Assembly: GCA_964398485.1 (NCBI GenBank)
Contig: CAYNMD010000003.1
Location: forward strand, 1,334-65,333
Reading direction: 5' to 3'
DNA: 64,000 nt
Source: an uncultured Bdellovibrionales bacterium
GTDB taxonomy: Bacteria > Patescibacteriota > Minisyncoccia > Moranbacterales > UBA1568
Within the stretch, counting starts at the first letter, position 1. Every line of letters begins with the position of its first letter. Below the pieces are notes generated by a model that had not been told where the DNA came from, ran no database searches, and saw only the letters and a program-made list of their open reading frames with translations. A program made the position numbers and the translations under genes. Below, in pieces: positions 6,139 to 28,501 of this stretch.

Positions 6139-6142
6139 ATTT

Positions 6143-12122: not shown

Positions 12123-13112
12123 ATGTCAATTCGAACTGAACGTATCAATTTTTTCCGGCAGACTGTCCTAGATTTTCTCGAGAAATCTGGACGCTCTGAA
12201 CTTCCTTGGCGGAAGAAAAAAATCACTCCTTATGAAGTGTGGGTGTCTGAGGTTATGCTGCAGCAGACCCAGGTATCGCGTGTTATTGACTATTATCGTC
12301 GCTTCCTCAAACGTTTTCCAACGGTAGAGAAACTAGCACAGGCTCATTGGGAAGTATTCCTTCCTTACTATGAGGGGCTTGGCTACTATGCTCGGGGTCG
12401 GAATATGCTCCGAACGGCGAAGGCATTGGTAAAGGAGTACGGAGGACGATTTCCTCGAACAGTGTCAGAGCTGGAGCAGCTACCTGGTATTGGACCATAT
12501 ACAGCAAGGGCTATTGCCAGTTTTGCCTACGATGCCTCAGAGTTAGCGTGGGATACTAACCTCAAGCGAGTGCTTGGACGTTTCTTCTTTGGTGGGAAGG
12601 ATCGAGTGGGAGAGGAAGAGATGATTATGTTGAACAAAACCCTTGGAAAGGGAGCGCGAGAACTCAATGCTGCTCTTATGGATTTTGGGAGCGCCCTCTG
12701 CACGGCTCGGCCAAAATGTGCGAATTGCCCTCTCCAAAAGCGGTGTCAGTATTTCAAAGATCGGGGAAAACAAGAATTAGGGGCTCTTGTAAAAAAGGCA
12801 GCAGGATCTCAGAAGAAGGGGGATCAATCGCTCGTATTTTTACACGAGCGGCATCAACGCTATTTTTCGTCTCAAACAAAGCATTATCGGCCATTTCTTT
12901 TGCCCCCGGGGTATCTTACACGAGCTGCTATCAAAGAATTTTTTTTGAAAGAGTATAACCTTTCGGTGGCGGTACGCCCACCACACAGCGTGGCAATTCT
13001 TGGGGGAGTATCAGTATCCCTGGTCCATGCTCAGATTTTACTTGGAGAGCCCTCTTTCTCTGTTTTTCCCAAATCGGCCGTTGTCGAGTATACTAAAAGG
13101 GAAAAATTATAG
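12123..13112 (+). CDS. mutY: A/G-specific adenine DNA glycosylase (MutY)
   Basis: HhH-GPD motif LPGIGPYTARAIASFAY, [4Fe-4S] cluster loop CTARPKCANCPLQKRC; ATG at 12123 (longer ORF starts with TTG at 12081). Confidence 0.75.
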   Translation: MSIRTERINFFRQTVLDFLEKSGRSELPWRKKKITPYEVWVSEVMLQQTQVSRVIDYYRRFLKRFPTVEKLAQAHWEVFLPYYEGLGYYARGRNMLRTAKALVKEYGGRFPRTVSELEQLPGIGPYTARAIASFAYDASELAWDTNLKRVLGRFFFGGKDRVGEEEMIMLNKTLGKGARELNAALMDFGSALCTARPKCANCPLQKRCQYFKDRGKQELGALVKKAAGSQKKGDQSLVFLHERHQRYFSSQTKHYRPFLLPPGYLTRAAIKEFFLKEYNLSVAVRPPHSVAILGGVSVSLVHAQILLGEPSFSVFPKSAVVEYTKREKL

Positions 13113-13120
13113 GTACGCTT

Positions 13121-14179
13121 ATGCAAGTACGCCAGCTGAATGTGTATTTCTTCTTCTTTCTCCTTATCGGCGGATCAGTGGTGGCGTTTTATATTTTCCA
13201 GCCATTTTTGACAGCTATTCTGGCTGCCGCCATTCTCTCTATTTTGTTCAAGCCACTCTATCGATTCCTTACCCAATCTTTCCGAGGGAGTGAAATCTGG
13301 GGTTCATTTGCTGCCTGTCTCGCGGTTGCTCTCCTGATCGTAACCCCGATTATTGTTACGTTGTCATTGGCAGTAGTTGAGGCCAATAATCTCTACCAAA
13401 CTATTGCTCAGGACCAAACCATTGACGAGCTTATTCACTCAGGTGTTGGTTATCTCAATAGTCAGCCGCTTACTCATTATGTATTTAGCGAGGAAATTCT
13501 CAATCCTGATAAAATCGCGAGTGATATCAAGACTTTTGGAACCAATGCCCTGAGTATTCTTCAGACGGCTTATCAGAGTGTAACGCACTTCTTCTTCTGG
13601 ACGTTTATTATGTTTTTCACCCTGTTTTATCTCTTTATCGATGGAGAGAATGCCTTCCGATATCTCTTGCGGCTGTCGCCACTCAAGAATGAACACGAGA
13701 AGTTGTTGACCGAGAAATTTATCTCTATCAGTCGAGCTACTCTCAAAGGGACATTGGTGGTAGGGACGGTCCAAGGACTTCTCGGAGGGATCGCTTTTTG
13801 GATAGTGGGAGTGCCATCGCCAGCTATTTGGGGCCTTATGATGATTCTTCTTTCGATGATTCCACTGATTGGTTCAGCTCTCATCTGGCTTCCAGCAGCC
13901 CTCTTCCTCCTCTTAATTGGTGATATTTGGCAGGGGGTCTTCCTTTTGGCTGTTGGCTTTGGTGTGATCTCTGTTATCGACAATATTTTACGGCCACGCT
14001 TTGTGGGGAAGGATACACAGATGCATCCTCTGATGATTTTCTTTGCTATTATCGGAGGGATCACTTATTTTGGTCTCCCAGGGTTTGTGATTGGACCCAT
14101 CTTTATTTCCCTTTTCCTCGCTCTGTGGGAAATCTATGCTGTTGAGTTCAAGACCCAGCTTGAGCAGTTTAACGCTTAA
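13121..14179 (+). CDS. AI-2E family transporter (UPF0118/PerM-like)
   Basis: 8 TM helices, conserved GxxGGxxxFW-like segments typical of AI-2E family. Confidence 0.65.
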   Translation: MQVRQLNVYFFFFLLIGGSVVAFYIFQPFLTAILAAAILSILFKPLYRFLTQSFRGSEIWGSFAACLAVALLIVTPIIVTLSLAVVEANNLYQTIAQDQTIDELIHSGVGYLNSQPLTHYVFSEEILNPDKIASDIKTFGTNALSILQTAYQSVTHFFFWTFIMFFTLFYLFIDGENAFRYLLRLSPLKNEHEKLLTEKFISISRATLKGTLVVGTVQGLLGGIAFWIVGVPSPAIWGLMMILLSMIPLIGSALIWLPAALFLLLIGDIWQGVFLLAVGFGVISVIDNILRPRFVGKDTQMHPLMIFFAIIGGITYFGLPGFVIGPIFISLFLALWEIYAVEFKTQLEQFNA

Positions 14180-14190
14180 GCCCATTTCTT

Positions 14191-15012
14191 ATGATTGAGT
14201 GGTGGCAGACGCTTCCTCAGTTTATTGATCCAGTTGCCTTTTCTCCGTTTGGGTTTCCAATTCCTTGGTACACCATCTGTTATCTTCTGGGGGTTATTTT
14301 TGCAACCATTTTTTTTGTGAGTCTTTTGAGGCGCAAGGGGCTAGTGATTTCCGAAGATGGAACCATAGAGCTCATCGTTTCAGTACTCTGGGGAGTAATT
14401 ATTGGAGCTCGACTTGGCTATGTGCTCTTCTATGGAGATAGTAGTTATTGGGAGGAACCATGGAGGATTATTTCCCCATACGACTTTACTCTGGGTGAAT
14501 GGATAGGTATCCGGGGACTCAGTTTTCATGGTGGACTTATCGGAGGAGCAATTGGTTTGTGGCGATTCACTCGTGAAGGAAACAGGGATTTTTGGGGAAT
14601 AGCGGATGCTTTGGTACAAGCGGTACCTATTGGGATTTTATTTGGCCGGTTGGGGAATTTTTTGAATCATGAAATTCCGGGCAAAATTACGGAACTCGCT
14701 ATAGGCATGCAGTGGTTTTTAGAGGAGGGGGTATTGCGCCATCCCGTGACGCTCTATGAGGCACTTGCTGAAGGAGGGTTACTCTTTTTCTTCTTGGTGC
14801 TGGTCAATCGATTACAGGCGAGGTCTGGTAACGTTACAGCCCTCTTTCTTATTGGATATGGAGTGATTCGGTTTGTTATGGAATTTTTTCGTGAGGTAAG
14901 CATCATTCAGAGTCTGGGTATTACTGCAGGCCAGGCACTATCAACAGTACTTGTTTTATGGGGAGTACTCCTTCTTTTTAGGCAATCTCGCCAACCGCTT
15001 GTGGTACAATAG
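14191..15012 (+). CDS. lgt: prolipoprotein diacylglyceryl transferase
   Basis: Lgt signature GRLGNFLNHE and YGxxxG-containing TM pattern. Confidence 0.8.
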   Translation: MIEWWQTLPQFIDPVAFSPFGFPIPWYTICYLLGVIFATIFFVSLLRRKGLVISEDGTIELIVSVLWGVIIGARLGYVLFYGDSSYWEEPWRIISPYDFTLGEWIGIRGLSFHGGLIGGAIGLWRFTREGNRDFWGIADALVQAVPIGILFGRLGNFLNHEIPGKITELAIGMQWFLEEGVLRHPVTLYEALAEGGLLFFFLVLVNRLQARSGNVTALFLIGYGVIRFVMEFFREVSIIQSLGITAGQALSTVLVLWGVLLLFRQSRQPLVVQ

Positions 15013-15058
15013 AAGGGTATAGTTTCTCGAGATCTTCTCTATAGAGCACGCTTCTATC

Positions 15059-16057
15059 ATGCGTCGATCATACCAAAATCAACATCACGAACCATTATCT
15101 ACTCGCCGTATTCTTGATGGTGTAGTACGGGGTGTTTTTGACACACCGAAGCCAGTTCATTTTGAGAACAAGCCACTGGTTACTCCACCAATGGTACGAG
15201 CCAGGAGACAGCTTGATGCTGTGCTGCTTCGAGAAAAAGAAAAGCGGGGCTGGTCATATCGAACGTCTCGAGTGGCGAGAGTGCTCTTTTTTCGTCGGCT
15301 TCAGATATGGAATCGAAGATTTATGCGACGCCTGGGCCGTTTTCTCCCTGATTTTGACGGTATCCCGCCTAAAAAAGCTCTGTATGCATCCCTTATTGGA
15401 GGGGTAAGTTTTGGCATGGTAGCCATGTCAATGTTTCAGGGTTTTACCGATAAAAATGCCGAGGCTATGCCGGTAGCCACTGTTGCAGAACCTGCTTCTC
15501 AAGAAGTGATTAGTCGCGAGCTTGGTATCGAAAATCAAAGGTATAATCCAGATAATGATATTTTCCTTCAATTCTTCACTGAATCTGAAAAAGAGGAGTA
15601 CGGTGAGCAAATTCGTTCACTGGTGGCTGGGTATCCAATCGAGGACATGCTCCCTTATATTTTGGAAAAGGATCGGGTAGTAGCTGCTTTTTTGGTTGGT
15701 ATCGCCAAGAAAGAGTCTAACTGGGGGAAACGTGTACCAGTCTTGGATGGTCAGGATTGCTTTAACTATTGGGGCTACCGAGGTGTGCGGCGACTGATGG
15801 GTACGGGTGGACATACCTGCTTTAATAGTCGTAAAGATGCTGTTGATACGGTAGCTAGTCGTTTGGAAAAACTCATCCATTCTAACAAACTGGATACTCC
15901 GGCTAAGATGATTATCTGGAAGTGTGGGTATAGTTGTGATGGACATAGTCGTGAGAGTGTTCGCAAGTGGATCGCTGATGTTGATATGTATTTCCAGGAG
16001 CTTCAGGGAACGGATGAAGAGGATGGTTTAGTGATGAATCCAGCAGTTACTCCATAG
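15059..16057 (+). CDS. membrane-anchored protein with C-terminal GH73 (glucosaminidase)-like domain; paralog of 16401..17210
   Basis: TM segment ALYASLIGGVSFGMVAMSMF; C-terminal FLVGIAKKESNWGKR...FNYWGYRG resembles ESGWG/NxFGIKG motifs of FlgJ/Atl glucosaminidase domains; four conserved Cys. Confidence 0.4.
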   Translation: MRRSYQNQHHEPLSTRRILDGVVRGVFDTPKPVHFENKPLVTPPMVRARRQLDAVLLREKEKRGWSYRTSRVARVLFFRRLQIWNRRFMRRLGRFLPDFDGIPPKKALYASLIGGVSFGMVAMSMFQGFTDKNAEAMPVATVAEPASQEVISRELGIENQRYNPDNDIFLQFFTESEKEEYGEQIRSLVAGYPIEDMLPYILEKDRVVAAFLVGIAKKESNWGKRVPVLDGQDCFNYWGYRGVRRLMGTGGHTCFNSRKDAVDTVASRLEKLIHSNKLDTPAKMIIWKCGYSCDGHSRESVRKWIADVDMYFQELQGTDEEDGLVMNPAVTP

Positions 16058-16097
16058 GTGTTCGGTCGAGAGAGGGTTTTATAGAGAAAAAAACAAT

Positions 16098-16190
16098 ATG
16101 CAAGAAATGAAACTTGATCTTAGGCGGGTGGCCCCACTCGCGTTAGGGCTTACTACATTGGCTGTGATGGCGGCTTTTCTTTTGGCCTAA
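16098..16190 (+). CDS. possible 30-aa hydrophobic micro-protein between the paralogs
   Basis: ATG ORF MQEMKLDLRRVAPLALGLTTLAVMAAFLLA followed by terminator-like hairpin; below ORF-track size cutoff. Confidence 0.2.
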   Translation: MQEMKLDLRRVAPLALGLTTLAVMAAFLLA

Positions 16191-16223
16191 CTCTTCTTTT
16201 GAACCGAGTCTGGCTGGTTTTTA

Positions 16224-16252
16224 CCGAGACCCTTCGGGGGGCTCTGTTTTTA
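16224..16252 (+). terminator. rho-independent terminator-like hairpin plus T-run
   Basis: GAGaCCC-ttcg-GGGgGCTC stem followed by TGTTTTTATT. Confidence 0.4.
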
Positions 16253-16400
16253 TTATATTGACATTATTTAAATTTTATTGTTTAAATTTAAATTTAAAAT
16301 ATTCAAAATAATGCTTTATATAAGCCAAAATTTTTTAAAAAGTGGTGAAAATTGATTGACGGGAGGGTATTTTTTTGGTAGGATTGAGCTTGTGTCTTTT

Positions 16401-17210
16401 ATGATACATTCTCCCTACAATTGCTTTCCAGGTCGTCAGGCCTTAGTGGTTTCCTCCCTTCAGAAGCGAGTCTTCTTGAGGAGTGCCTCTCTTTTCCTCC
16501 TGATTTCTCTCCTTGGTTTTTCTTTCTTCGTCCCTCCTTCGGTGATGGCGGCAGAGGCTCCTTCCCTAGAAAAAGAGGAGACTTTGGAGTTTTCGTTAGA
16601 TGATTTTGAACAGCGGTTTTCATTGGGTAATCAAACCAAGGATCTTTGTGCATGGGAACGTGATTTGGGGTTTTTCCTCTCTCGTGAGCGCGCTACCGAA
16701 AGTAGGGTTGAGACTATTGATTGTACCGAAAGACTACAGAATACTGCTTTGCGTGAAATGAAACCGGAGTATCAATCTGGCGATAGCGAGCTCAAGCAGG
16801 AGATTCAAGAACTTGCCAAAGGATTCCCTCTTGAGGAAATGGCAGGAGCTATTGCTCGCTATGATAGAGAAATTGCTGGTCTTATAGTTGGTATCGGAAA
16901 GAAAGAATCAAACTGGGGAAAGCGAACTCCTAAGCTTCTCGGTGAGGAATGCTATAACTATTGGGGCTATCGAGGAGTGGGTACGCGCGGGTTTACCCCG
17001 GATGGTTATGGTTGCTGGGAGAAGCCTGAAGAAGCCGTCAAGGCTATTGGTGACCGATTGGTGAAACTACGTGAAATCAGGCTTAGTGCTGAACCAGCTC
17101 GGATGATTGTCTGGAAATGTGGTAATTCCTGTGCTGGACATAGCGACGAGAGTGTTCGCAAGTGGATTGCTGATGTGAACTTTTATTTCCAAGAAATCGC
17201 GAGAAATTAA
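16401..17210 (+). CDS. secreted protein with GH73 (glucosaminidase)-like domain; paralog of 15059..16057
   Basis: Signal-peptide-like LFLLISLLGFSFFVPPSVMAAEA; IVGIGKKESNWGKRTP...YNYWGYRG...KCGNSCAGHSDESVRKWIADVNFYFQE is a near-copy of the C-terminus of the upstream gene. Confidence 0.4.
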   Translation: MIHSPYNCFPGRQALVVSSLQKRVFLRSASLFLLISLLGFSFFVPPSVMAAEAPSLEKEETLEFSLDDFEQRFSLGNQTKDLCAWERDLGFFLSRERATESRVETIDCTERLQNTALREMKPEYQSGDSELKQEIQELAKGFPLEEMAGAIARYDREIAGLIVGIGKKESNWGKRTPKLLGEECYNYWGYRGVGTRGFTPDGYGCWEKPEEAVKAIGDRLVKLREIRLSAEPARMIVWKCGNSCAGHSDESVRKWIADVNFYFQEIARN

Positions 17211-17226
17211 TTTGGACTATCATCTG

Positions 17227-17262
17227 AAAACACCTCGAGAAAGTGGGGGTGTTTTTTATTTT
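17227..17262 (+). terminator. terminator-like hairpin
   Basis: AAAACACC-loop-GGTGTTTT followed by TTATTTTT. Confidence 0.4.
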
Positions 17263-17316
17263 TCAGTATAGTCCAAAGGGGGTGGTATACTAAAAATATA
17301 AGTCTTGTCTTGAGAT

Positions 17317-18255
17317 ATGAGTTGGCTCGCATACGCCCTTGGTGGTTATCTTTTCAATGCGGTAACAGCAATTTTTGATAAGTTTCTTCTCTCTGATCGA
17401 GTCAAGGAGCCGTGTGTGTATGCTTTTTTTGTGGCCGTACTTTCCCTTTTTGCCATTGTATTTGTACCGTTTGGAGTACAGTGGATTCCTTGGCAAACGA
17501 TCGTGGTATTTGTGATTTCTGGTGTTTTGTTTCTGTACGGCTTGGTTGCTTTTTACAATGCCGTAAAACGTAGTGAAATTTCACGAGTGGCCCCATTAGT
17601 AGGGATTGCTATTTCAGTGATTGCTGGAGTGGCTTCACTCGCCTTTGGACCAGCGGCTACGATGTCGTTTTCACCGCTCAATTTTCTTTCCTTGTTTCTT
17701 CTTTTGGGAGGTGCCTTTTTGGTCGCTTTTGATTTGCCACTCAAACCCAATGATGCACTCATGAAGTCGACGCTGCTGGCAGGTGCTTTGATGGCTCTCT
17801 CACTCATTTTTCTCAAGACCGGCTATCGTAATGCTGATTTTATCAATGGTTTAGTTTGGTCGAGACTTGGTTTTGTGCTGGGGGGATTTTCTCTCTTTAT
17901 TATTCCGCAATACCGCAATGCTATCCTGGAGAGCACGCACGCTATGACGGTGGCAAGTAAAGATAATTTTGTAACTGGATCACTGTTTGTTCTCAATAAG
18001 GTATTTGGTGCGGTGGCTACTTTTCTTCTAACCTATGCTGCTTATCTAGGTCCCATTACCTTTATTCAGGCGCTCAACGGCATTCAATATGCTTTTGTTT
18101 TACTTTTGGCTTTACCACTTTCTTTTTACTTCCCTCATATTTTTGAGGAGAAATTATTATTTTGGGATTGGGCCCAGAAAGTTTTTGCTGTGCTACTGAT
18201 CATTTTGGGGATGTGGCTTGCTGTTCATTCGGGAGTGGATTTTCTTTTTCTCTAA
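17317..18255 (+). CDS. polytopic membrane protein (about 10 TM, DMT/EamA-like topology)
   Basis: Ten hydrophobic helices in two halves; no catalytic motif recognised. Confidence 0.4.
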   Translation: MSWLAYALGGYLFNAVTAIFDKFLLSDRVKEPCVYAFFVAVLSLFAIVFVPFGVQWIPWQTIVVFVISGVLFLYGLVAFYNAVKRSEISRVAPLVGIAISVIAGVASLAFGPAATMSFSPLNFLSLFLLLGGAFLVAFDLPLKPNDALMKSTLLAGALMALSLIFLKTGYRNADFINGLVWSRLGFVLGGFSLFIIPQYRNAILESTHAMTVASKDNFVTGSLFVLNKVFGAVATFLLTYAAYLGPITFIQALNGIQYAFVLLLALPLSFYFPHIFEEKLLFWDWAQKVFAVLLIILGMWLAVHSGVDFLFL

Positions 18256-18258
18256 CCT

Positions 18259-19287
18259 ATGCAGAACTGGAAAGGGGTACTTAAGGTAATCACTATCACA
18301 CTACTCAGCCTTCTTTTGTGTATTGGGACAGTGTTTTTGTATTTTAATCTACCTGGCCCCATGCCCCGTGAAGATGTTCATCTCGGCATGACCTTTTCTT
18401 CTCGCTATGCGACCGATCTTGGTCTTGATTGGCAAGAAACATATCGAGCGCTTCTCTACGATATGGGAGTCAAGAAACTACGTATACCGGTGTATTGGGA
18501 TTTGGTGGAGTCAGAGCCCGGGAAAACTTATTATGCTGACGTTGATTGGCAGATAGAAGAAGCAAAGAAGGCTGGGGCAGAAGTTATTCTCTCTGTTGGT
18601 CAACGGGTCCCGCGCTGGCCAGAATGCCATATTCCAGGTTGGGCTAAAGAAAAAAGCGATGAAGAGCGCCAGCAGGCACTCAAGGGATTTCTTGCTGAAA
18701 CTGTAAATCGCTATAAACACGAATCAGTAATTACAACTTGGCAAGTAGAGAACGAGCCCTTTCTTGTTTTCTTTGGTGAGTGTCCACCACTTGATGTGGG
18801 CTTTCTTGAAGAAGAGGTGGCTCTCGTAAAGGCGCTCGATGGAGAGAGACAGCGACCAGTGCTTTTGACTGATAGCGGTGAACTTTCTATTTGGACAAGA
18901 GCGGCCAAACGGGGTGATATTTTTGGGACGACCATGTATCGCATGATTTATAAAGGCGGGTGGGGATATGTTACCTATCCAATTGGGCCAAATTTTTTCC
19001 GAGCCAAGGAATGGCTGGTGAGGCTTGTCACTGATCAGGAACACTTTATGGTTATCGAACTTCAGGCGGAGCCCTGGGCTAATGGTTGGGTGGGAAATGT
19101 TTCGCTTCCCGAACAATTTATTACGATGAATGAAAAACTCCTCGAAGAAAATGTGACGTACGCGAGAAGGGTAGGATTTCAGGATATCTATCTGTGGGGT
19201 GGGGAATGGTGGTACTGGCTTAAAACTAAAAAAGACTATCCAGCTGTGTGGGAAAAGGGGAATGAGTTGTTTGAAAAGTATCGATAA
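18259..19287 (+). CDS. membrane-anchored glycoside hydrolase, clan GH-A (GH5/GH42-like)
   Basis: N-terminal TM anchor, catalytic acid/base motif QVENEP, (beta/alpha)8-like pattern. Confidence 0.5.
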   Translation: MQNWKGVLKVITITLLSLLLCIGTVFLYFNLPGPMPREDVHLGMTFSSRYATDLGLDWQETYRALLYDMGVKKLRIPVYWDLVESEPGKTYYADVDWQIEEAKKAGAEVILSVGQRVPRWPECHIPGWAKEKSDEERQQALKGFLAETVNRYKHESVITTWQVENEPFLVFFGECPPLDVGFLEEEVALVKALDGERQRPVLLTDSGELSIWTRAAKRGDIFGTTMYRMIYKGGWGYVTYPIGPNFFRAKEWLVRLVTDQEHFMVIELQAEPWANGWVGNVSLPEQFITMNEKLLEENVTYARRVGFQDIYLWGGEWWYWLKTKKDYPAVWEKGNELFEKYR

Positions 19288-19298
19288 TTTATTACGAT

Positions 19299-19715
19299 AT
19301 GAATTTGAATAAAGAGATGGTCATTAAAATTGTGCATAGTATCAACATTCTATTGATGGTATGCTTTTCCCCTATCATGTTATTCGTATTTCTTTTTGCT
19401 TTATCTGATGTAGTAGATCGTTCGAACTTCACTAGTCCACTGGTTATTGAAGCTTTCGGATATCTACTGGTAGTGGTATTTGGTTTGCTCGCTTTAAAAA
19501 AGCGACATTTGCTTTTTATCAGCCTGTTAGGGTGGGTGCTTTTGTGGTGGGGGAACTATATGGATATAGACAATGCTCAGAAGGGAGAGCAGTTCGCTTG
19601 TGTGACGATGAGACAAGATCCGCTTTGTGTCGAAAGAGATGATGGGACTATGGAGTGTAGCGGGGGCACTTTAGCTGGTGTGTATCCACAGGTCTGTAAT
19701 GGAATCTCAAAATGA
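19299..19715 (+). CDS. membrane protein, hypothetical
   Basis: Three TM helices then Cys-containing tail; stop overlaps next start. Confidence 0.3.
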   Translation: MNLNKEMVIKIVHSINILLMVCFSPIMLFVFLFALSDVVDRSNFTSPLVIEAFGYLLVVVFGLLALKKRHLLFISLLGWVLLWWGNYMDIDNAQKGEQFACVTMRQDPLCVERDDGTMECSGGTLAGVYPQVCNGISK

Positions 19716-20200
19716 TTCTTATACTCGACAATATTCGGAGTGCTCACAATGTGGGAGCAATATTTCGGACGGCGGATGGAGCTGGTATTGAGAAGCTGTA
19801 TTTGGTTGGGATTACTCCTCAGCCAACCGCAAAAAAGCTGTATCTAACCGATGCCGAAAAAACACTTCGAAAAACAGCGTTGGGAGCAGAGGAGAACGTT
19901 TCCTGGCAATCAGTGAAGACGATTGGGCCGCTCCTGAAAAAACTCAAGGAGGAAGGGTATATTTTGGTAGCTCTCGAGCAATCAGAACAGAGTGTCGACT
20001 ACCGATCATGGCAACCTCCTCGGGGTGGTTTGGTGGCGCTCATTGTGGGCAATGAAATAGAGGGGGTATCGACCAATGCTCTCAAACAATGCGATGTGAT
20101 TATTGAACTTCCGATGCGAGGAAAGAAGAATTCCCTTAATGTATCGGTAGCAGCTGGTATTGCCATGTATCACCTGTCAGCTACAATGGAGAAGCAGTGA
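19712..20200 (+). CDS. SpoU/TrmH-family RNA 2'-O-methyltransferase
   Basis: MILILDNIRSAHNVGAIFRTADGAG and IVGNEIEGV motifs of SPOUT class. Confidence 0.7.
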   Translation: MILILDNIRSAHNVGAIFRTADGAGIEKLYLVGITPQPTAKKLYLTDAEKTLRKTALGAEENVSWQSVKTIGPLLKKLKEEGYILVALEQSEQSVDYRSWQPPRGGLVALIVGNEIEGVSTNALKQCDVIIELPMRGKKNSLNVSVAAGIAMYHLSATMEKQ

Positions 20201-20222
20201 CCTGATCTAAGTAACAGTATGA

Positions 20223-20945
20223 ATGTCTATGAAAGAAAAGAAGATTGCCGTGTTTGATATTGATGGGACCATTTTTCGAAAAAATCTGCATTTTGAACTT
20301 ATTAATGAGTTAGCTTGGATGAACATCTTTCCGCATGAGGTTCGGAGGAAGTTGACTGAGGTATATACGAATTGGCTTGAGCACGAAGGAACATATGAGG
20401 ACTACCGAAAGGCGCTCGTGGAGCTTTATGCAAAACATATCAAAGGGGTCTCCGAAGAACAGGTAAAAGAGGCGGCCAAGATTGTTATCCCATTTCAGGC
20501 CAAGCGTACCTATATTTTTGCTGAAGAACTTATTCAAAAGTTACGCTCGGAAGATTATCATTTCTTGGCTGTTTCTGGATCGCCACAGGAAATTGTAGAG
20601 GAGTACAATCGCCATTACCTTCATTTTGATCATGTTTTTGGAAGCGTCTACGAACGAGATAAGGATGGAATATATACTGGAAGGGCAGAGTTCGAGCCAT
20701 CTCTTAACAAAGGGGAGGTAGTGAAACAGTATGTGTATGAACATGGGCTTACCCTCGAAAATTCTTATGGTGTCGGTGATACTGAATCAGATGGGGGATT
20801 CCTTAGGTTAGTGACCTATCCGATTGCGTTTAACCCAAATCAAAATCTCAAAGGGCTTGCAGAGAGAGAGGGTTGGCGTATGGTAGTAGAGAAAAAAGAT
20901 GTTGTCTATGAGTTCGGCAGTACCACTCAGGCAGTAGTTTCGTAG
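20223..20945 (+). CDS. HAD-superfamily hydrolase (HAD-IB, phosphoserine-phosphatase-like)
   Basis: Motif I FDIDGTI, motif III K...GVGDTESDGGF. Confidence 0.65.
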   Translation: MSMKEKKIAVFDIDGTIFRKNLHFELINELAWMNIFPHEVRRKLTEVYTNWLEHEGTYEDYRKALVELYAKHIKGVSEEQVKEAAKIVIPFQAKRTYIFAEELIQKLRSEDYHFLAVSGSPQEIVEEYNRHYLHFDHVFGSVYERDKDGIYTGRAEFEPSLNKGEVVKQYVYEHGLTLENSYGVGDTESDGGFLRLVTYPIAFNPNQNLKGLAEREGWRMVVEKKDVVYEFGSTTQAVVS

Positions 20946-21094
20946 GTTATTTAAACAAGATCAATATTATTTATGAATCTTAACTCAAAGTTGGATGATT
21001 TTCTCAAGTCAACCGTCTGGCTCTGGCTCCCGTTCTATGCTTTTTTTGCCCTCTTGAAGGAGTGGCGGGAGCATGTCAATAAAGAGTAAGGGGT

Positions 21095-21478
21095 GTGCAC
21101 CGGTTGTCTGTAGCGTGGCGTTGGGGTTTTATGCTGTTCTTGTGGATGGGCGTTATTTTTCTTTTCTCCCATCAGCCAGGGAGTGGTAAAGACTGGGAGC
21201 CACCGCTATGGTATGTACTCGAGAGGAAATCAGCCCACGTGGTTGAATACGCTATTTTGATGGCTCTAGCTCTTCGGTGGTTTTCCTTCTTGTATCCGCA
21301 GGAGTCTTGGAAAAAAGTGAGCTTGGTAAGTTTTCTTTTTGCAGTTACCTATGGATTTTTTGATGAGATACACCAGTCGTTTATTTTTGGTCGTGGAGCA
21401 AGATTATCTGATGTTCTGATTGATGCTGGAGGAGCATTTTTGATTGGCCTTTTATATACTGCCTGGAAGAGGAGGTAA
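21095..21478 (+). CDS. VanZ-family membrane protein
   Basis: GFFDEIHQSFIFGRGARLSDVLIDAGGAFLIGL VanZ signature. Confidence 0.6.
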   Translation: MHRLSVAWRWGFMLFLWMGVIFLFSHQPGSGKDWEPPLWYVLERKSAHVVEYAILMALALRWFSFLYPQESWKKVSLVSFLFAVTYGFFDEIHQSFIFGRGARLSDVLIDAGGAFLIGLLYTAWKRR

Positions 21479-21486
21479 AAAGCGAT

Positions 21487-23037
21487 ATGAGTCTTTCCAA
21501 TAATCTTTTGCAAAAGCTGAGAGAGTGGCGTGATCGTCAGGCTCGGATTGAAGGGGTCGAGGGGTACCGCGTTCTTCCCAATCAGACACTGGAGTTTATT
21601 GCTACAACACTGCCTCATTCCAAAGAGGAACTTTGCGATATCAAGGGGATTAAGGATGCAAAATTTCGTAAATACGGGAAGGAGATTCTCAAAATTGTAA
21701 GTGAAGAAGATAGAGAAATTCACACAGAAACAGGCCTCACTCATATCAATGAACCATCTTCTGAACAGAATACTCCCGGGTCTAGAGCATTAACGGTATC
21801 TCAGTTTTTGGATGGTCTCAATCTGGAACTCTCAGGGATGGCGGCCCGCATTCGGGGTGAAGTGACAAGTGTCGATGTCCGTGAGCGAGTAGTATACTTT
21901 AGTCTTAAGGATAAACAGGATGAGAGCGTTCTGAGCTGTCTTATATTTCGGTACCAGTATGATTTGAGTGGAGTATCAATTGAAGTGGGGATGGAAATTA
22001 TCGTGGAAGGGGCACCTGATATCTATAAGCCATCAGGTCGTCTGAGTGTTCGAGCTGGTTCTATCGAGTATGCCGGTGAGGGAGCGCTGAAGCAGGCATA
22101 TCTTAAACTCTACCAATTACTCACGGATGAAGGAGTATTTTCTCCAGAAAATAAGGAACCAATACCTACTTTTCCTCGGAGGATAGCCTTGATCACTTCG
22201 CAGGATGGCGCTGCTATTGGTGACTTCACTTCCAATCTTGTTCGAGCTGGCATAAAGGTAGATTTTTACCCAACTTTAGTTGAGGGAAAGAAAGCAGTTT
22301 TTGATATCATTCGCGCTTTAGAATATTTTAATCAAAAGCCGGATCAGTATGATGTGCTGGTACTCATCCGTGGTGGTGGCAGCTTGGAGAGTTTACAGGC
22401 ATTCAATACAGAGTCACTGGTAAGAGCCGTTTATCATTCCAAGATACCTGTACTAGCTGGCATTGGCCATGAGCGAGACATTTCTTTGGCTGCTTTGGCA
22501 GCAGATAAGATGGTGTCAACTCCTACAGCAACAGCCAAAGAGTTATCGCGAGGTTATGATATGGCAAGAGAGAATCTGGAAAAGATCCAGGCTTGGCTAC
22601 TGATGGTCTCGGGAAGAGTCATGCTTCAAGGGAGTGCACTTCTTGACGAACAAGAAAGACTGCTTCGAGGTAGTTTTGATGAAGTGTTTGAGCATTTTAT
22701 GGATGCCAAGCAATCTTTTGAGCAGAAAGCATTATTTTTGCCAGAGTATATAAGGATGACTCGTACTTTACTGGCTCAACGGTCAGCTGCTCTCATAATG
22801 AAGCTGCAGGATGCCCTGAGTCATACCAATCTGTGGATAGAACATCAGACAAGACAATTAACTCAGTATGATCCCGTTCGGGTTTTACAACTTGGATACA
22901 GTCTTGTACGGAAGAATGGTCAGATAATCCGCCAATCTAGTGATCTTAGTGTGGGGGACAGAGTCCGTATACAACTTGGGAGAGGTGCGCTAGAATCAGA
23001 AGTAAAGCAAATTTATCCCGAGGGGGAACTATTATAG
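21487..23037 (+). CDS. xseA: exodeoxyribonuclease VII large subunit with N-terminal HRDC domain
   Basis: N-terminal 70 aa LLQKLREWRDRQARIEGVEGYRVLPNQTLEFIATTLP...KFRKYGKEILKIV is HRDC-like; followed by OB-fold RIRGEVTSV and ExoVII catalytic region. Confidence 0.8.
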   Translation: MSLSNNLLQKLREWRDRQARIEGVEGYRVLPNQTLEFIATTLPHSKEELCDIKGIKDAKFRKYGKEILKIVSEEDREIHTETGLTHINEPSSEQNTPGSRALTVSQFLDGLNLELSGMAARIRGEVTSVDVRERVVYFSLKDKQDESVLSCLIFRYQYDLSGVSIEVGMEIIVEGAPDIYKPSGRLSVRAGSIEYAGEGALKQAYLKLYQLLTDEGVFSPENKEPIPTFPRRIALITSQDGAAIGDFTSNLVRAGIKVDFYPTLVEGKKAVFDIIRALEYFNQKPDQYDVLVLIRGGGSLESLQAFNTESLVRAVYHSKIPVLAGIGHERDISLAALAADKMVSTPTATAKELSRGYDMARENLEKIQAWLLMVSGRVMLQGSALLDEQERLLRGSFDEVFEHFMDAKQSFEQKALFLPEYIRMTRTLLAQRSAALIMKLQDALSHTNLWIEHQTRQLTQYDPVRVLQLGYSLVRKNGQIIRQSSDLSVGDRVRIQLGRGALESEVKQIYPEGELL

Positions 23038-23046
23038 TTTTGTACT

Positions 23047-23256
23047 ATGACAAAGGAAAAGGAAATGTCGCTTGGTGAATCCTTGAAGCAACTTGAGGCT
23101 ATTACTGAATGGTTTGATCAGCAGGAGGCGATCGATGTCGAACGTGCCTTGGAAAAAGTGAAGGAGGGTGCAAAGCTTCTTCGCTCGAGTCGAGAGAAGT
23201 TAAAACAGGTAGAAAATGAATTTCAGGTTATTCGCCAGGAACTTGAACAGGAGTAG
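23047..23256 (+). CDS. xseB: exodeoxyribonuclease VII small subunit
   Basis: 69 aa coiled-coil, LEAITEWFDQQEAIDVERALEKVKEGAKLL typical XseB. Confidence 0.75.
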   Translation: MTKEKEMSLGESLKQLEAITEWFDQQEAIDVERALEKVKEGAKLLRSSREKLKQVENEFQVIRQELEQE

Positions 23257-23307
23257 TTTTTTGCCTCTCTTGATCCAGTGGTATACTAAAAGAAACACAA
23301 ATACTCA

Positions 23308-25008
23308 ATGCATCGGTTTGTCGGAGATATTTCTATTGTTTTAGGTGGAGCAGCTGGCCAAGGGGTCCAGACTGTTGAGTCTTTGCTTGTACAAATTCTC
23401 AAGCGAGAGGGATATTTTGTTTTTGCTTGTAAAGAATACATGTCGCGTATACGTGGCGGCTCTAACTCCACTGAGATCAGAATTACCAATAAAAAACGAA
23501 GGGCGTTTGTAAAGAAGATTGATCTTCTCTTTGCTCTTGATAAAGAAGTGGTTCCTCATCTCAAGCATCGGATTACGAGTAAAACAGTGATTGTTGGAGA
23601 GAAATCAAAAGTGTGTGAAACGAATTGTAGTGTAGTGGATATTCCCTTTAGCCGCTTTGCCTCCGAACTTGGACATCCGATATATACCAGTACAGTTGCC
23701 GTTGGGGTGGTGCTCGGTCTGCTCCAGGCAGATGAGGAGACGTTCCACGCTTATTTGCGGACGCATTTCTCTCGCAAGGGCGATGAAGTAGTTGCAAAAA
23801 ATATAGAAGCAGCCAAGAAGGGTTTTGCTCACGGGAGACACATCGCTTTTGTAGAGGGCATAGAGATTGCTTTACCTCGAAATAATCAGGGAAGTGACAA
23901 GGAGCTTCTGTTGGAGGGGATAGATGCAGTAGGGATGGGAACTTTGGCTGCTGGCTGCAATTACATCTCTTCATATCCTATGTCTCCAGGGACAGGACTC
24001 TTGACCTATCTCGCGCAGCATAGTAAGGAATTTGGTGTAGTTGTTGATCAGGCCGAAGATGAAATTGCTGCCGTAAATCAGGGAATTGGAGCCTGGTATG
24101 CGGGGGCACGAGCGATCGTTACTACTTCAGGAGGTGGTTTTTCGCTTATGACCGAAGGAGTGAGTCTCTCCGGTATGATCGAGACGCCAGTTGTTATCCA
24201 TATTGGACAGCGACCAGGGCCAGCGACGGGACTTCCGACGAGGACCGAGCAAGCTGATCTGAATCTGGCTCTGTATGCGGGACATGGTGAATTTCCACGA
24301 GCTATTTTCGCACCCGGGTCTCCGGAGGAGGCATATTTGTGTATGCAGCAAGCTTTTGAGATGACTGATCGGTTTCAGGTGCCAGTGATGGTGCTTACGG
24401 ACCAATATTTATTGGACAGTATCACTACTGTTGCATTACAAGAACTCGTGAGTGTACGTTGGAAAAATCATGTTGTCAAAACAACTCGTGATTATCAACG
24501 CTATGCCATGACCAAAGATGGAGTGTCTCCAAGAGGTATTCCGGGGTATGGTACTGGTTTAGTGGGAGTGGACAGTGATGAACACGATGCTGACGGCCAC
24601 ATTACCGAGAGTCATGTTGTTCGCCTAGAGCAGCATGAAAAACGCTTGAGAAAATTGGATGGTCTTCTTGAGGAAACACTTCCGCCAGTAGTAAGAGGTA
24701 ATATTAAAAAAGCTAAGACCGTAGTAGTTACTTGGGGATCAAATCTTGGGCCAGCAGAAGAAGCTCTTGAGATTTTTGGTAATCCGGAGTTTGCCCAAGT
24801 GCATTTTTCCCAGGTCTATCCTTTGTCACCAGTTGGGAAAAAATTACTCGAAAAGAAGCAGATAGTAGTTGTTGAAAATAATGCCACTGGCCAATTTGCT
24901 CATCTCCTGGAGCGTGAGTATGGGGTAGAGGTTGGTAAAAGGATACTTCAGTACGATGGCAATCCCTTTGCTGTGGAGGATTTGGTGAATAGATTGAGAA
25001 AAATATAG
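23308..25008 (+). CDS. 2-oxoacid:ferredoxin oxidoreductase alpha subunit (fused gamma-alpha)
   Basis: Gamma-domain LGGAAGQGVQT at N-terminus, then alpha-domain with GHGEFPRAIFAPGSPEEA. Confidence 0.8.
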   Translation: MHRFVGDISIVLGGAAGQGVQTVESLLVQILKREGYFVFACKEYMSRIRGGSNSTEIRITNKKRRAFVKKIDLLFALDKEVVPHLKHRITSKTVIVGEKSKVCETNCSVVDIPFSRFASELGHPIYTSTVAVGVVLGLLQADEETFHAYLRTHFSRKGDEVVAKNIEAAKKGFAHGRHIAFVEGIEIALPRNNQGSDKELLLEGIDAVGMGTLAAGCNYISSYPMSPGTGLLTYLAQHSKEFGVVVDQAEDEIAAVNQGIGAWYAGARAIVTTSGGGFSLMTEGVSLSGMIETPVVIHIGQRPGPATGLPTRTEQADLNLALYAGHGEFPRAIFAPGSPEEAYLCMQQAFEMTDRFQVPVMVLTDQYLLDSITTVALQELVSVRWKNHVVKTTRDYQRYAMTKDGVSPRGIPGYGTGLVGVDSDEHDADGHITESHVVRLEQHEKRLRKLDGLLEETLPPVVRGNIKKAKTVVVTWGSNLGPAEEALEIFGNPEFAQVHFSQVYPLSPVGKKLLEKKQIVVVENNATGQFAHLLEREYGVEVGKRILQYDGNPFAVEDLVNRLRKI

Positions 25009-25011
25009 CGT

Positions 25012-25869
25012 ATGATCGACAAGAAATTGTATGATATGCCCCATAAGACGGATATAGCCTGGTGTCCAAGCTGTGGCAATTTTCCTATCCTCAATATTGT
25101 AAAAACCGCTCTTGCAGAACTCGATATTCCACCAACAGAAGCTGTTATTTGTTCGGGTATCGGTCAGGCTGCCAAGGCCCCTCACTATCTGCGAGTAAAT
25201 TACTTTAATGGTCTTCATGGGAGGGCCTTACCTCCAGCAACGGCTATCAAAATCGCTAATCCAAAACTCACGGTTATTGCTGAGTCAGGTGATGGTGACA
25301 CCTATGGGGAAGGAGGTAATCATTTTCTGCACACCATACGGAGAAACCCTGATATCACCAATATTGTTCATAACAACATGATTTACGGCCTCACTAAGGG
25401 ACAGGCTTCACCAACGAGTGAAAGAGGTATGGTGACGCCAGTTCAGACAACTGGAGTAATTATAGAGCCCTTTAATCCAATAGCTGTTGCCCTTTCTTGT
25501 GGAGCCACTTTTGTGGCGAGAGCTTTTTCTGGTGACGTTGTCCAGGCAGTCAAAATTGTAAAAGAGGCTATACAGCATAAAGGATATGCTTTGGTAGATA
25601 TTTTCCAGCCGTGTGTAGTATTTAATAAACAGAATACCTACCAGTGGTTTAAGCAGAATACCTACTACCTCAATGAAGAGCATGATCAATCTAATCGCTC
25701 GAAAGCTTTTGAAATTGCGTTTGACATGTCTAAATTGGCTCTAGGAGTTATTTATCAAGAAACTGGCCGAAAAACATATGAGCAATTGATTCGTGACACA
25801 GATGAGTCTCTTCATCAAATCCGTTCAGGAGTTTCCTTGAAGGACTTTTTTATGAGAAACTATAAATGA
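25012..25869 (+). CDS. 2-oxoacid:ferredoxin oxidoreductase beta subunit (TPP-binding)
   Basis: AWCPSCGNF and TPP-binding [15 protein letters not shown]; 4 nt after alpha subunit. Confidence 0.8.
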
Positions 25870-25984
25870 TCAGGAGTTGGCGGCGGGGTGATGTTCTTGT
25901 GCTCTTCTATTTTAAATGGGTAGTTTTTATAAAAATAAAATGCATTTTTATGTGGCAGAAGTGGCGTGAGTATTCCTTATTTTT

Positions 25985-28501
25985 TTGCTTGACCTTTTTT
26001 GTTCCTTGTTTTTCTTTCCTGCACAAGTTGATGCCGCATGTAGCTTTGACGGAAATTTAACTTGGGGGGGAGGGAATTGCAGTGCCAATATGAGCGTAAC
26101 TGCTGAAGACGGTCAATCCAGGTCAGCTAATAACACTAATCAGGGTTATACTGGCCGAATAACGTATGTTTGTAACGGAAGTGATTGGGCAAAAGTAAGT
26201 GAAACATGTACTCAGTCAAGCGGTCTTTCGGTTGCAGCTAACCTTAGTCCAAGTACGGTTTCTCCAGGAGGGACTTTTAGTGCGGAGTGGTCTATTAGTG
26301 GAGCTACGTCGTGTAGTCTTCATACTCAGATTTCTAAGAGCGGTGGTGAAGTTACTGATGACACTGTAAATTTTCCAACAACAAGTGGGAGAAGTAGTTA
26401 TACTTTCAAGGCTGGTGAGGTAGCCGCTTTTTACACCCTTACCTGTTCTGGTGGGGGAGAAACAAAATCTGCTTCTGATTCAGTGCTTGTTACTCCAACG
26501 ATTAATTCAGTTACAGTGAGTCCAACTACAATCTCAGCTGGTTCATCAGCTACAGTTACGGTAGTTTCTACGAATGCAGGTAGTTGCCATATTGCCAATA
26601 CAGCCGTTGTTTTCCCTAGTCCTAATAGTTCGGTAAGCTTTTCTCCTACGCGATCTGGTTCTTATACAGTAATTTGTTCATTGCCTGGGGGTAGAGGAGG
26701 GACGGCTCAAAAAAGTTTTTCTATCACTGTTACTTCTGCTTCTCCTACCGCGCCAACGGCCACTATATCTGCCAACGGTACGGAGGGAAGAAACACGAGT
26801 GCCCCAGGGTCTCTTCCGGCAGCTGTTATCACAAGCAGCGGCAGTGCAACGGTCTCTTGGTCATCAACACAGGCCACAAGTTGTAAGTTGGGTGGAACAA
26901 ACAAAGTAACTGGTTGGAATGCCGGGACAGTGGAGACTTCGGGGAGTAAATCTTTCGCAGCGAGTGATTTTACTACCGGTGCTGGTTACTATACATTTAC
27001 CGTTCAGTGCACCAATGCTGCGGGAGAGTGGTCATCTACCATTGGGGTTGATGTAGTACTACAGGGTGGTACAGGGGGTGGTGATAATCCTCCTCCCGGT
27101 GGTGGGGGCTCGGCTCCGGGGGTGCCAACGGGTTTGGCGGCTACACCTGGGGACTGTAATACCGGGAAGATTGTACTAACCTGGAATGCGGTAACTGGGG
27201 CTACTTCATATCAACTACGTGATGGAACCACTCAGATTTACAATAGTTCAGCACGGACTTTCACACATACCAATCTTGCAGCTGGATCGACTCATAATTA
27301 TACGGTCAGAGCAAGGAATAACAGTGGCGACTCGGCATTTTCTTCACCGGCAGTAGTGGCCACTGCTCCTATGACGGTTTGTTCACCTGTAATTAATGCT
27401 TTTTCTACGGACAAGGCGACGTTAGCTACTCCTGGACCAGTTACTTTGAGTTGGCAAACTACTCGAACAGCGAGTTGTACTGCTTCAGGCGACTGGAGCG
27501 GCTCGGTAACTCCACTGACAGGTTCGCGAGTAGTCACTGTCAATAGTACGAGTACTTACTACCTGGTCTGTATGGATACCAATGGTAATACCACTGAAGA
27601 AAAGTCAGTTACTGTGACCGTGGGTAACTCCTCTTGTACTCCAAATAATTCCTGTGCAGCGAGTCGCTGTACGTTTGAACAGTGCTCTGACGGCTGTGGG
27701 GGATTTATTGGTGGGACACAGGACTGTGATGACTCACTCTGTATCCCAGATAATAGTTGTATCCTCACCACCCCAGTTGGTTCCTACTGTACTAATAATT
27801 GTGGCCAACAGGTTCCCGGAGGAATGAGTACGGGCGGTGGTGATAATCCAAATCAATGTACGCCAACTATTAGCTGTAACCCCGCTGAAACGTGTACGGG
27901 AGCTACCTGCTGGAATGGCTGTGCCAATATTGCTGGTACTAAAGATTGTAGTACTACTCCCATTATTGTTTCCACCTCCCCCGTCCTCTTCCAGAATCCA
28001 CTCAAATTCAATAATCCTCACGATCTCCTTACTACGCTCCTTACCTTCTTCCAGGGGATTATAGTAATACTCTCCCTCATCATGATTATCATCGGAGCCT
28101 TCCTCTACATTACCTCAGCTGGAGATGAAGGAAGAATGACTCAAGGAAAAAAAGCTATCTTAGCCGCCCTCATAGGTCTCGCCTTAGGTATCGCTGCCCC
28201 TGCCTTCCTCAGAGAGATAGCTTCTATCCTCGGTTGGGGTACCCCCAATCTCCCCAGTGGAGTAGGCACTTCCCTCACTCTCATTCAGATAGCGACCAAT
28301 GTCCTCAACTTTCTTCTGACGATCATTGGTATCCTCGCTATCATCATGCTCGTGATTGGAGGCATTATGTACCTTACCGCAGCTGGAAATGAAGATACTC
28401 TTGATAAAGGCAAAAGAATCGTAAAATACTCTCTCATTGGCATTACGATTGCCTTAGCTTCTCTTGTTCTCGTAAAGGCGGTAGCGGGGCTGCTATCGTA
28501 G
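25985..28501 (+). CDS. large Ser/Thr/Cys-rich surface protein with Fn3-like domains and two tandem C-terminal pilin-like TM hairpins
   Basis: Signal-like N-terminus, Ig/Fn3-like repeats (fibronectin-III pattern LTWNAVTGATSYQLRDGT...YTVRARNNSGDS), Cys-rich module, then twice TM-AG(D/N)E-basic loop-TM (…FLYITSAGDEGRMTQGKKAILAALIGLALG… and …IMYLTAAGNEDTLDKGKRIVKYSLIGITIAL…). Confidence 0.6.
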   Translation: MLDLFCSLFFFPAQVDAACSFDGNLTWGGGNCSANMSVTAEDGQSRSANNTNQGYTGRITYVCNGSDWAKVSETCTQSSGLSVAANLSPSTVSPGGTFSAEWSISGATSCSLHTQISKSGGEVTDDTVNFPTTSGRSSYTFKAGEVAAFYTLTCSGGGETKSASDSVLVTPTINSVTVSPTTISAGSSATVTVVSTNAGSCHIANTAVVFPSPNSSVSFSPTRSGSYTVICSLPGGRGGTAQKSFSITVTSASPTAPTATISANGTEGRNTSAPGSLPAAVITSSGSATVSWSSTQATSCKLGGTNKVTGWNAGTVETSGSKSFAASDFTTGAGYYTFTVQCTNAAGEWSSTIGVDVVLQGGTGGGDNPPPGGGGSAPGVPTGLAATPGDCNTGKIVLTWNAVTGATSYQLRDGTTQIYNSSARTFTHTNLAAGSTHNYTVRARNNSGDSAFSSPAVVATAPMTVCSPVINAFSTDKATLATPGPVTLSWQTTRTASCTASGDWSGSVTPLTGSRVVTVNSTSTYYLVCMDTNGNTTEEKSVTVTVGNSSCTPNNSCAASRCTFEQCSDGCGGFIGGTQDCDDSLCIPDNSCILTTPVGSYCTNNCGQQVPGGMSTGGGDNPNQCTPTISCNPAETCTGATCWNGCANIAGTKDCSTTPIIVSTSPVLFQNPLKFNNPHDLLTTLLTFFQGIIVILSLIMIIIGAFLYITSAGDEGRMTQGKKAILAALIGLALGIAAPAFLREIASILGWGTPNLPSGVGTSLTLIQIATNVLNFLLTIIGILAIIMLVIGGIMYLTAAGNEDTLDKGKRIVKYSLIGITIALASLVLVKAVAGLLS

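Follow-up and report, generated by a model that had tools for sequence, protein, structure and literature searches.

The present analysis concerns an 838-residue protein encoded at 25985..28501 on the forward strand of a 64,000-nucleotide stretch of DNA, which as a whole we call the window (contig CAYNMD010000003.1 of assembly GCA_964398485.1, deposited as an uncultured Bdellovibrionales bacterium). The protein ends in two consecutive pilin-like helical hairpins, and this double-hairpin pair is an old and strongly conserved module of Candidatus Moranbacteria, which here follows a large ectodomain of beta-sandwich and Cys-rich domains. Taken as a whole, we consider it fairly probable that the protein is a surface stalk or adhesin seated on a VirB2-like double-pilin anchor and serves in a filament as a minor or tip subunit, with the surface-anchored-stalk part of this reading being much more secure than the pilus part.

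Four hydrophobic segments occupy the C-terminal end of the protein (aa 680-714, 722-746, 763-802 and 811-838), forming two hairpins whose turns read SAGDEGRMTQGKK and AAGNEDTLDKGKR. The hairpins are 36% identical to each other over 67 aa (E 5e-15), which is far beyond chance and bears out the original prediction, made from the DNA letters and their open reading frames (ORFs), that two consecutive helix-loop-helix copies would be found here. Modelling of this end had been proposed as a check, and in an AlphaFold2 model built with 30 relatives the last 188 residues form four long helices arranged in two hairpins (aa 678-710, 715-748, 766-798 and 803-837; mean predicted local distance difference test score, pLDDT, 82.5). 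The hairpins do match a pilin family: the T4SS_pilin profile of the type IV secretion system (T4SS), PF18895, reaches 69.2 bits (cut-off 26.6) over two stretches, the better of which aligns aa 681-742 with positions 8-68 of the 71 in the profile, while the NCBIfam model for Mycoplasma integrative and conjugative element (ICE) pilin-like proteins scores 37.7 bits, slightly below its cut-off of 40. The protein shares the design of PF18895, namely a pair of long hydrophobic helices with a short charged turn between them, but departs from the typical form, a small single-hairpin protein of roughly 90-150 aa with a signal peptide, as it has 838 aa, two hairpins and a 660-aa ectodomain. These matches support placing the hairpins in the T4SS_pilin family, and a pilin reading is thereby supported at the family level. 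The parts of the gene, by position in the window, are the following.

25985..28501, forward strand: the whole ORF, 838 aa (ORF call).
25950..25986, forward strand: ATG and basic n-region MWQKWREYSLFF in the -1 frame, leading into a T7 tract (inferred reading of the frame).
25985..26035, forward strand: aa 1-17, MLDLFCSLFFFPAQVDA, hydrophobic signal-like peptide without a basic n-region.
26036..26215, forward strand: N-terminal segment, aa 18-77, containing 4 Cys (no match to any family; modelled with low confidence).
26216..27064, forward strand: three immunoglobulin (Ig)-like beta-sandwich modules, aa 78-360, each with the pattern W...SC...Y.C (AlphaFold2, Foldseek, repeat consensus).
27065..27118, forward strand: Gly/Pro-rich linker, aa 361-378 (composition; pLDDT <50).
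27119..27373, forward strand: fibronectin type III (Fn3) domain, aa 379-463 (Pfam, PDB profile match, AlphaFold2).
27150, no strand: contig-end point at aa 389, the start of the Fn3 domain, where contigs L086, L087 and L088 all end.
27374..27625, forward strand: fourth Ig-like module, aa 464-547, in which similarity to the relative P0219 starts (aa 467).
27626..27952, forward strand: Cys-rich region, aa 548-656, with two sub-modules and a Gly-rich linker between them, common to P0219 and P0220.
27973..28240, no strand: zone of recombination and assembly breaks inside the pilin module, with switches of identity at 27973, 28070, 28120 and 28240.
27974..28030, forward strand: lead-in to helix 1, aa 664-682, with the NPLKF motif (conservation in long relatives).
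28022..28234, forward strand: pilin-like hairpin 1, aa 680-750, turn SAGD (Pfam, hydropathy, repeat, AlphaFold2).
28235..28276, forward strand: linker between the hairpins, aa 751-764, 14 residues, predicted extracellular from the inferred topology.
28277..28498, forward strand: pilin-like hairpin 2, aa 765-838, turn AAGN (Pfam, repeat, profile, AlphaFold2).

The ectodomain (aa 1-660) is rich in Thr (15.3%), Ser (14.2%) and Gly (11.7%) and consists of four Ig-like sandwiches, one Fn3 domain and the Cys-rich stretch. In an AlphaFold2 model of aa 18-665 (mean pLDDT 73), confident beta-sandwiches cover aa 78-362 (three modules, pLDDT mostly 80-95), aa 378-462 (the Fn3 domain) and aa 467-547, and the first 60 residues and the Cys-rich part at aa 548-665 are modelled with low confidence. 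The Ig-like modules have a common consensus ('...TLxWSSTNATSCTASGxWxG...TYTLTCxGxGG...'), and both the composition of the ectodomain and its predicted folds agree with the Ser/Thr-rich Ig/Fn3-like modules originally proposed. The same can be said of the single module with an Fn3 pattern. The fn3 profile (PF00041) scores 19.7 bits on the whole protein, below the Pfam cut-off of 25, and 26.6 bits on the excised segment aa 376-463; this segment also matches solved Fn3 domains (3mpc, E 3.4e-5) and has confident strands over aa 382-460. A Cys-rich module is likewise real, although the proposed figure of at least 20 Cys in about 150 aa was too high, as aa 551-655 (105 residues) contain 16, aa 498-655 contain 18 and the entire chain contains 31. 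Foldseek searches with the ectodomain model retrieved strings of Ig, Fn3 and macroglobulin (MG) domains, such as those of alpha-2-macroglobulin, the grappling-hook protein GhpA and receptor ectodomains, and no enzyme was matched by Pfam, PDB profile or Foldseek searches, which leaves the ectodomain with Ig/Fn3 folds and not with those of a known enzyme. An LPXTG motif for sortase anchoring is absent from the sequence, the C-terminus being hairpin 2 itself.

The double-hairpin module is by no means confined to this gene. Searching its 178 aa against 1.84 billion representative proteins yielded 16,782 matches at E<=1e-3, with 262 representative clusters remaining at E<=1e-30, and a word-indexed search gave 361 matches, of which the named ones all belong to Candidatus Moranbacteria/Moraniibacteriota and are 55-98% identical along almost the full length of the module. 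Hundreds of proteins have 55-95% identity to it across its 178 aa. In a comparison of 34 proteins, hairpin 1 is 59% and hairpin 2 65% identical within its own class, whereas hairpin 1 and hairpin 2 are 34% identical to each other, whether taken from the same or from different proteins. Since this cross-identity is far below the identity within each class, the duplication must be old, and the two halves have been constrained separately. The window protein has all parts of the double-pilin subfamily in order, i.e. NPLxF, hairpin 1, the linker and hairpin 2 at the C-terminal end, and 19 columns are invariant among the 34 long relatives, including turn residues and N671 and P672 of the NPLKF motif ahead of helix 1. 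Long forms recur as well: among the best 150 representatives, 19 have a length of 500-1005 aa and carry the module at the extreme C-terminus, mostly behind unannotated Ig-like and Cys-rich modules, and the window protein, with 670 residues before N671, is the fourth longest of the 34 compared. The fusion of such an anchor to a large ectodomain, which the original prediction took to be unusual, is therefore a recurrent arrangement in a lineage where hundreds of clusters have the module. A few relatives have three to six tandem hairpins (e.g. P0243); three of them (P0243, P0253 and P0266; 552-606 aa) have four to six and no large ectodomain.

The conservation around NPLKF can also be viewed in another way, by analogy with pilin leaders. 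If the ectodomain were cut off near this motif, it would constitute a giant leader, and the products would be a secreted Ig-like protein and a mature double pilin. The invariance of N671 and P672, the conservation of the segment before helix 1 in all long relatives and the short relatives' start almost at the motif are all in line with such processing, but they are equally well explained if NPLKF is the start of the pilin fold. Moreover, no protease or cleavage site is known for the family, and the known pilin leaders (TraA, TrbC) comprise tens of residues, as opposed to 660 here. We regard this scenario as highly improbable.

The genomic setting of the module was surveyed at 80 loci of species-representative genomes, in which ORFs were called and searched with the module profile. 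Among 83 complete double-pilin genes, 71 lie in same-strand pilin arrays and have N-terminal extensions with a median of 42 aa. Such a gene is typically the last of its array and is preceded by three to five genes for pilins with one hairpin each (90-150 aa; 90-214 aa at locus L083), which resemble the hairpin 2 type. The remaining 12 stand alone, with a median extension of about 440 aa, and the window gene, a stand-alone paralogue among housekeeping genes, belongs to this orphan long-ectodomain class. The first gene of an array usually encodes roughly 300-400 aa with one pilin-like hairpin followed by a lysozyme-like domain. In profile searches this domain gave matches to goose-type lysozymes as well as to the lytic transglycosylases MltC, EmtA and EtgA, at best with E 3.1e-7, and the gene product is thus a putative membrane-anchored VirB1-like enzyme encoded beside VirB2-like genes. 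Lysozyme-like first genes were seen at L083 (5839-6663) and in the arrays of L008, L015, L019, L022, L026, L030, L035, L048, L061, L066 and L076, and Pfam detects in them only a weak T4SS_pilin match. The Moranbacteria arrays lie beside infB and are flanked by housekeeping genes, which are also the neighbours at L083, the one locus with full Pfam annotation.

Based upon these features, several proposals can be made regarding the function of the window protein. A Sec-type N-terminus would place the ectodomain of about 660 aa outside the cell, and the C-terminal 175 aa would sit in the membrane as two VirB2-like hairpins, with their short basic turns in the cytoplasm and the inter-hairpin linker and C-terminus facing outward, as far as topology can be predicted. 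The module would thereby hold a variable binding stalk on the cell surface, and it may be a constant adaptor recognised by partner pilins or by pilus or secretion machinery. In a VirB2-type filament built from single-hairpin pilins, the protein would most plausibly be a minor or tip subunit and not the repeating one, since the lattice could not accommodate a 660-aa domain on each of its subunits. The ectodomain might bind the surfaces of hosts or particles, its fast exchange altering binding specificity, and a role in attachment or episymbiosis is possible.

A number of results weigh against the pilus part of this reading. VirB4, VirB6 and VirD4, as well as VirB3, are absent among the 40 window ORFs of at least 120 aa that were scanned with Pfam (covering 5-7324, 12081-25869 and 28912-60613), and no VirB4 or VirD4 was found within 10 kb of the related arrays examined, where VirB6 was not looked for; the 23 large Walker A ORFs (>=520 aa) near the arrays include 18 IF-2 genes and one ATPase of the type II secretion system/type IV pilus kind, but none for VirB4 or VirD4. 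As these results cover 64 kb of the genome itself, its T4SS genes may lie elsewhere. To our knowledge, a pilus of this type has not been seen in Moranbacteria. The pilin-type hairpin of the original prediction stands as far as PF18895 is concerned and falls short for PF04956 (TrbC/VIRB2), which the window protein does not match at E<=1, although 4 of the 34 long relatives do (best E 1.1e-8) and a match is recorded for many short ones. Foldseek hits in the PDB were limited to generic helical bundles (E>0.6), and a profile search of all PDB sequences retrieved no pilin. Helical hairpins are such simple folds that these comparisons cannot decide pilin identity, and the VirB2/TrbC link of the hairpins rests on sequence profiles. 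The annotated frame also offers only a weak N-terminal signal. Finally, the 1005-aa relative P0321 has LamG and sulfatase domains ahead of the module (Sulfatase profile 171 bits), which indicates that the module also carries enzymes and fits a general display anchor equally well as a pilus tip.

Such considerations could favor a simpler explanation, in which the four helices are a passive anchor for assorted ectodomains, with neither a filament nor a link to a T4SS. This would agree with the failure to find T4SS genes near the window gene or the arrays within the scope searched, with the high diversity of the ectodomains, the sulfatase included, with the lack of a specific match to solved pilins by fold or profile, and with the lysozyme-like first gene of the arrays, whose product is also membrane-anchored by a single hairpin. 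However, a passive anchor rarely keeps a per-hairpin identity of 59-65% with 19 invariant columns, turn residues included, while everything else is replaced; as array pilins have a mean identity of about 25% (PMC12102498), the much tighter module argues for specific partners. The canonical place of the module is also at the end of a cluster of lysozyme-like and pilin genes, and in another Patescibacterium the pilin arrays are essential and lie inside a T4SS cluster (PMC10633639). A merely passive anchor is thus unlikely in our estimation, and the stalk on a pilin-type anchor with a place in a filament remains the reading we prefer.

The long ectodomain has a mosaic relationship to those of its closest relatives. 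In L003, the nearest species representative, the upstream genes through the pyruvate:ferredoxin oxidoreductase beta subunit are kept at 87-90% nucleotide identity and the module at 88% (94.9% at the amino acid level), while the 637-aa protein is dissimilar before aa 664 and the downstream genes differ. L002 presents the opposite picture, as the module and the downstream genes for L27, MFS and ScpA proteins are 97.7% identical in nucleotides exactly from 27973 (aa 663), whereas the ectodomain and the upstream gene differ from those of the window. The relatives P0219 and P0220 are similar from aa 467 (75% identity) and aa 551 (62% identity) onward, respectively, and differ in everything before these points, and two short contigs from other samples with an identical L27 gene, L100 and L101, diverge at 28070 and 27973, respectively, and represent additional recombinants. 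The joins at aa 467, 551 and 663/664 coincide with domain borders, and these alignments indicate that the ectodomain is replaced by recombination at such borders, whereas the module is kept. A more ambitious proposal builds on this pattern: the double-pilin module could be a universal docking adaptor that mounts swappable cassettes (Ig stalks, Cys-rich domains, a sulfatase) on the tip of a T4SS pilus, the cassettes being swapped by homologous recombination between near-identical paralogue modules and setting the range of hosts or substrates. We offer it tentatively and consider it doubtful in this full form.

The same module coincides with breaks in many assemblies. At least 13 independent contigs end in the gene or just downstream, including three at 27150, which is probably a strain-level branch point, one at 28120 and eight between 28240 and 28562 (e.g. 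28388 and 28460), the last two of these just past the stop codon at 28501. L002, unlike these contigs, does not stop here but continues into an upstream gene of its own. The locus in sample ERZ27283041 is distributed over two contigs that leave 28121-28239 uncovered. Assembly graphs would be split in just this way by a module that recombines and occurs in multiple copies, which would account for the pile-up of contig ends. The linkage of the ectodomain to the downstream genes in the window could consequently depend on the assembly. L085, from an independent assembly, is 100% identical to the window over 19012-28120, from which it follows that the ectodomain runs in frame into hairpin 1 there as well.

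The beginning of the gene has peculiarities of its own. The ORF at 25985..28501 is intact (838 codons plus a stop), and its TTG is the first start codon past the upstream stop; gene calls in public assemblies begin at M36 (ATG at 26090) and thereby miss any signal. From the TTG, the peptide MLDLFCSLFFFPAQVDA combines a hydrophobic core with an A-x-A-like end, so the signal-like N-terminus originally noted is there in the form of a hydrophobic 17-aa peptide, but it lacks the basic n-region, which sits in the -1 frame. In that frame an ATG at 25950 encodes MWQKWREYSLFF, a canonical basic n-region (MWQKWRE...), which runs into a tract of seven T (T7, 25980-25986); the ORF begins inside this tract, and six more T (T6) follow at 25995-26000. 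Judging from the two frames, a -1 slip at T7, or one extra T in T7 or T6, would join them into a canonical signal peptide of about 29 aa ending in ...FFFPAQVDA, with A as the next residue. The 5' region with its T tracts is identical in 4 independent assemblies from 4 samples, and the arrangement is therefore not a random sequencing error or indel; slippage, whether ribosomal or transcriptional, or phase variation might lie behind it.

These observations at both ends of the gene raise the question of whether it is silent, phase-variable or mis-assembled, i.e. switched off in most cells, dependent on a slip at T7 or chimeric across the repeated module. The basic n-region in the -1 frame upstream of T7, the many contigs ending in or at the gene and the split locus of ERZ27283041 could all be understood in these terms. 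Yet the frame is open through all 838 codons, the 5' region is the same in the four assemblies and samples, the identity of L085 over 19012-28120 extends into the module, and 19 of the 150 best representative clusters share this architecture. We therefore rate this explanation as decidedly unlikely and retain the reading of a genuine stalk protein with a double-pilin anchor.

As for the organism, the best named matches of the alanyl-tRNA synthetase encoded in the window are Candidatus Moranbacteria proteins (76-79% identity), and because of these matches we assign the DNA to a Moranbacteria-lineage member of the Patescibacteria, or candidate phyla radiation (CPR). L003, L004 and about 30 other Moranbacteria-type pilin loci are likewise titled "uncultured Bdellovibrionales bacterium". 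This label is probably a taxonomic mis-assignment, given that L003 is 87-90% identical in nucleotides to a window with a Moranbacteria-like alanyl-tRNA synthetase. No second copy of the module was found when the six-frame translation of the window was searched with its 178 aa (phmmer), a search that did not extend to profile searching of small ORFs for distant single-hairpin pilins. Elsewhere in the window, 820-7324 holds a type I restriction-modification operon (HsdR, HsdM, HsdS) with two extra genes between hsdM and hsdS, one encoding a Hypoth_Ymh/HEPN-like protein (PADLOC Aga_HEPN, 2.4e-18) and the other a DUF3800 protein. Two adjacent paralogous ORFs of 332 and 284 aa (15059-16057 and 16356-17210) have a conserved C-terminal domain without a Pfam match (...KKESNWGKR...NYWGYRG...WKCGxSCxGHSxESVRKWIADV...) and are 75-78% identical in nucleotides over two stretches of about 100 bases (15683-15787/16875-16979 and 15899-15999/17094-17194). 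A 138-aa ORF at 19299-19715, which has no family match, is absent from the collinear L003, where the alignment lies on either side of 19290-19711. At 58223-59530 there is a 435-aa reverse transcriptase of the retron type (PADLOC RT_II-A, 7.2e-21), upstream of which a conserved stem-loop element (AAAAATTCAAACGGCGAC...GTCGCCG) occurs three times (55467-55532, 56828-56892 and 57622-57686); a diversity-generating retroelement was considered and ruled out, as the mismatches between repeats are not adenine-specific. Neither tRNA genes nor Rfam families at the gathering threshold were detected in the whole 64 kb (1-64000).

The family and its gene clusters were already known in outline, and the combination of a double hairpin with an ectodomain is a new variation and not a categorically new system. 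Patescibacteria make up a large share of bacterial diversity, and many of them live attached to other cells. The one member studied by genome-wide mutagenesis, Southlakia epibionticum, requires its T4SS genes and pilin cluster for growth on the host (PMC10633639). A conserved pilin module joined to fast-changing Ig-like ectodomains is a candidate for the missing contact element of the Patescibacteria T4SS, and the double-pilin module offers a defined target for antibodies, proteomics and cryo-tomography. A recombining module would also explain the assembly breaks at this gene. Should the module be only a membrane anchor, it would still supply an annotation rule for several hundred "hypothetical" surface proteins, and should the docking-adaptor proposal be true, it would amount to a pilus-based surface variation system in ultrasmall bacteria.

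When compared with known systems, the ectodomain resembles long surface proteins built of Ig repeats, among them GhpA of Aureispira (Foldseek E 1e-11 to 5e-10), a likeness that extends only to generic beta-sandwich repeats, as the anchor differs. A functional parallel may be seen in the combination of a constant pilin-type module with a variable or bulky tip domain. FimH of type 1 fimbriae has a binding domain and a pilin domain, and GspK is the large cap subunit of type II pseudopili; by analogy, the window protein would share their layout if it is located at a tip as we propose, but the folds and assembly machines are unrelated. With VirB2, TrbC and TraA (PF04956) it has in common two hydrophobic helices and a short basic loop, and some of its relatives score on PF04956. 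In the membrane, VirB2 and TraA have their N- and C-termini facing outward and their basic loop in the cytoplasm. These classical pilins differ from the window protein in having about 70-120 aa, a single hairpin and genes beside virB3/virB4. Like PrgB, the adhesin of monoderm conjugation, the protein is proposed to contact partner cells for a monoderm-type T4SS, although the two have no sequence relation and PrgB is wall-anchored, unlike the window protein with its lack of LPXTG. No PrgB-like adhesin was detected in Patescibacteria (PMC12102498), and the possible pilus of monoderm T4SS is listed in a review as an open question (PMC12857230).

The closest counterparts are the VirB2-like pilin arrays of the Patescibacteria themselves. 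VirB2-like pilins (PF18895, PF04956) have been recorded in 1,948 assemblies of Patescibacteria, along with 441 arrays that comprise 2-11 genes each, and VirB4 in about 2,400 of about 3,030 assemblies of the same dataset (PMC12102498). In Southlakia epibionticum, of the Saccharibacteria lineage, the pilin genes lie inside a T4SS cluster and are essential for epibiotic growth (PMC10633639; PMC12857230), and PF18895 is the commonest Pfam domain in freshwater-specific structure clusters (bioRxiv 10.1101/2025.04.23.650224). Neither tandem double pilins nor ectodomain-fused pilins were found in the literature, of which few subscription-journal papers were covered. The Moranbacteria arrays differ from virB4-adjacent ones in their position beside infB. 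The window protein shares with the Patescibacteria arrays its Pfam family, its phylum and a helix-turn-helix design with an N-terminal secretion signal, and its short paralogues are the last genes of such arrays. What sets it apart is the presence of two diverged hairpins in one chain, joined to a 660-aa ectodomain and encoded by a stand-alone gene.

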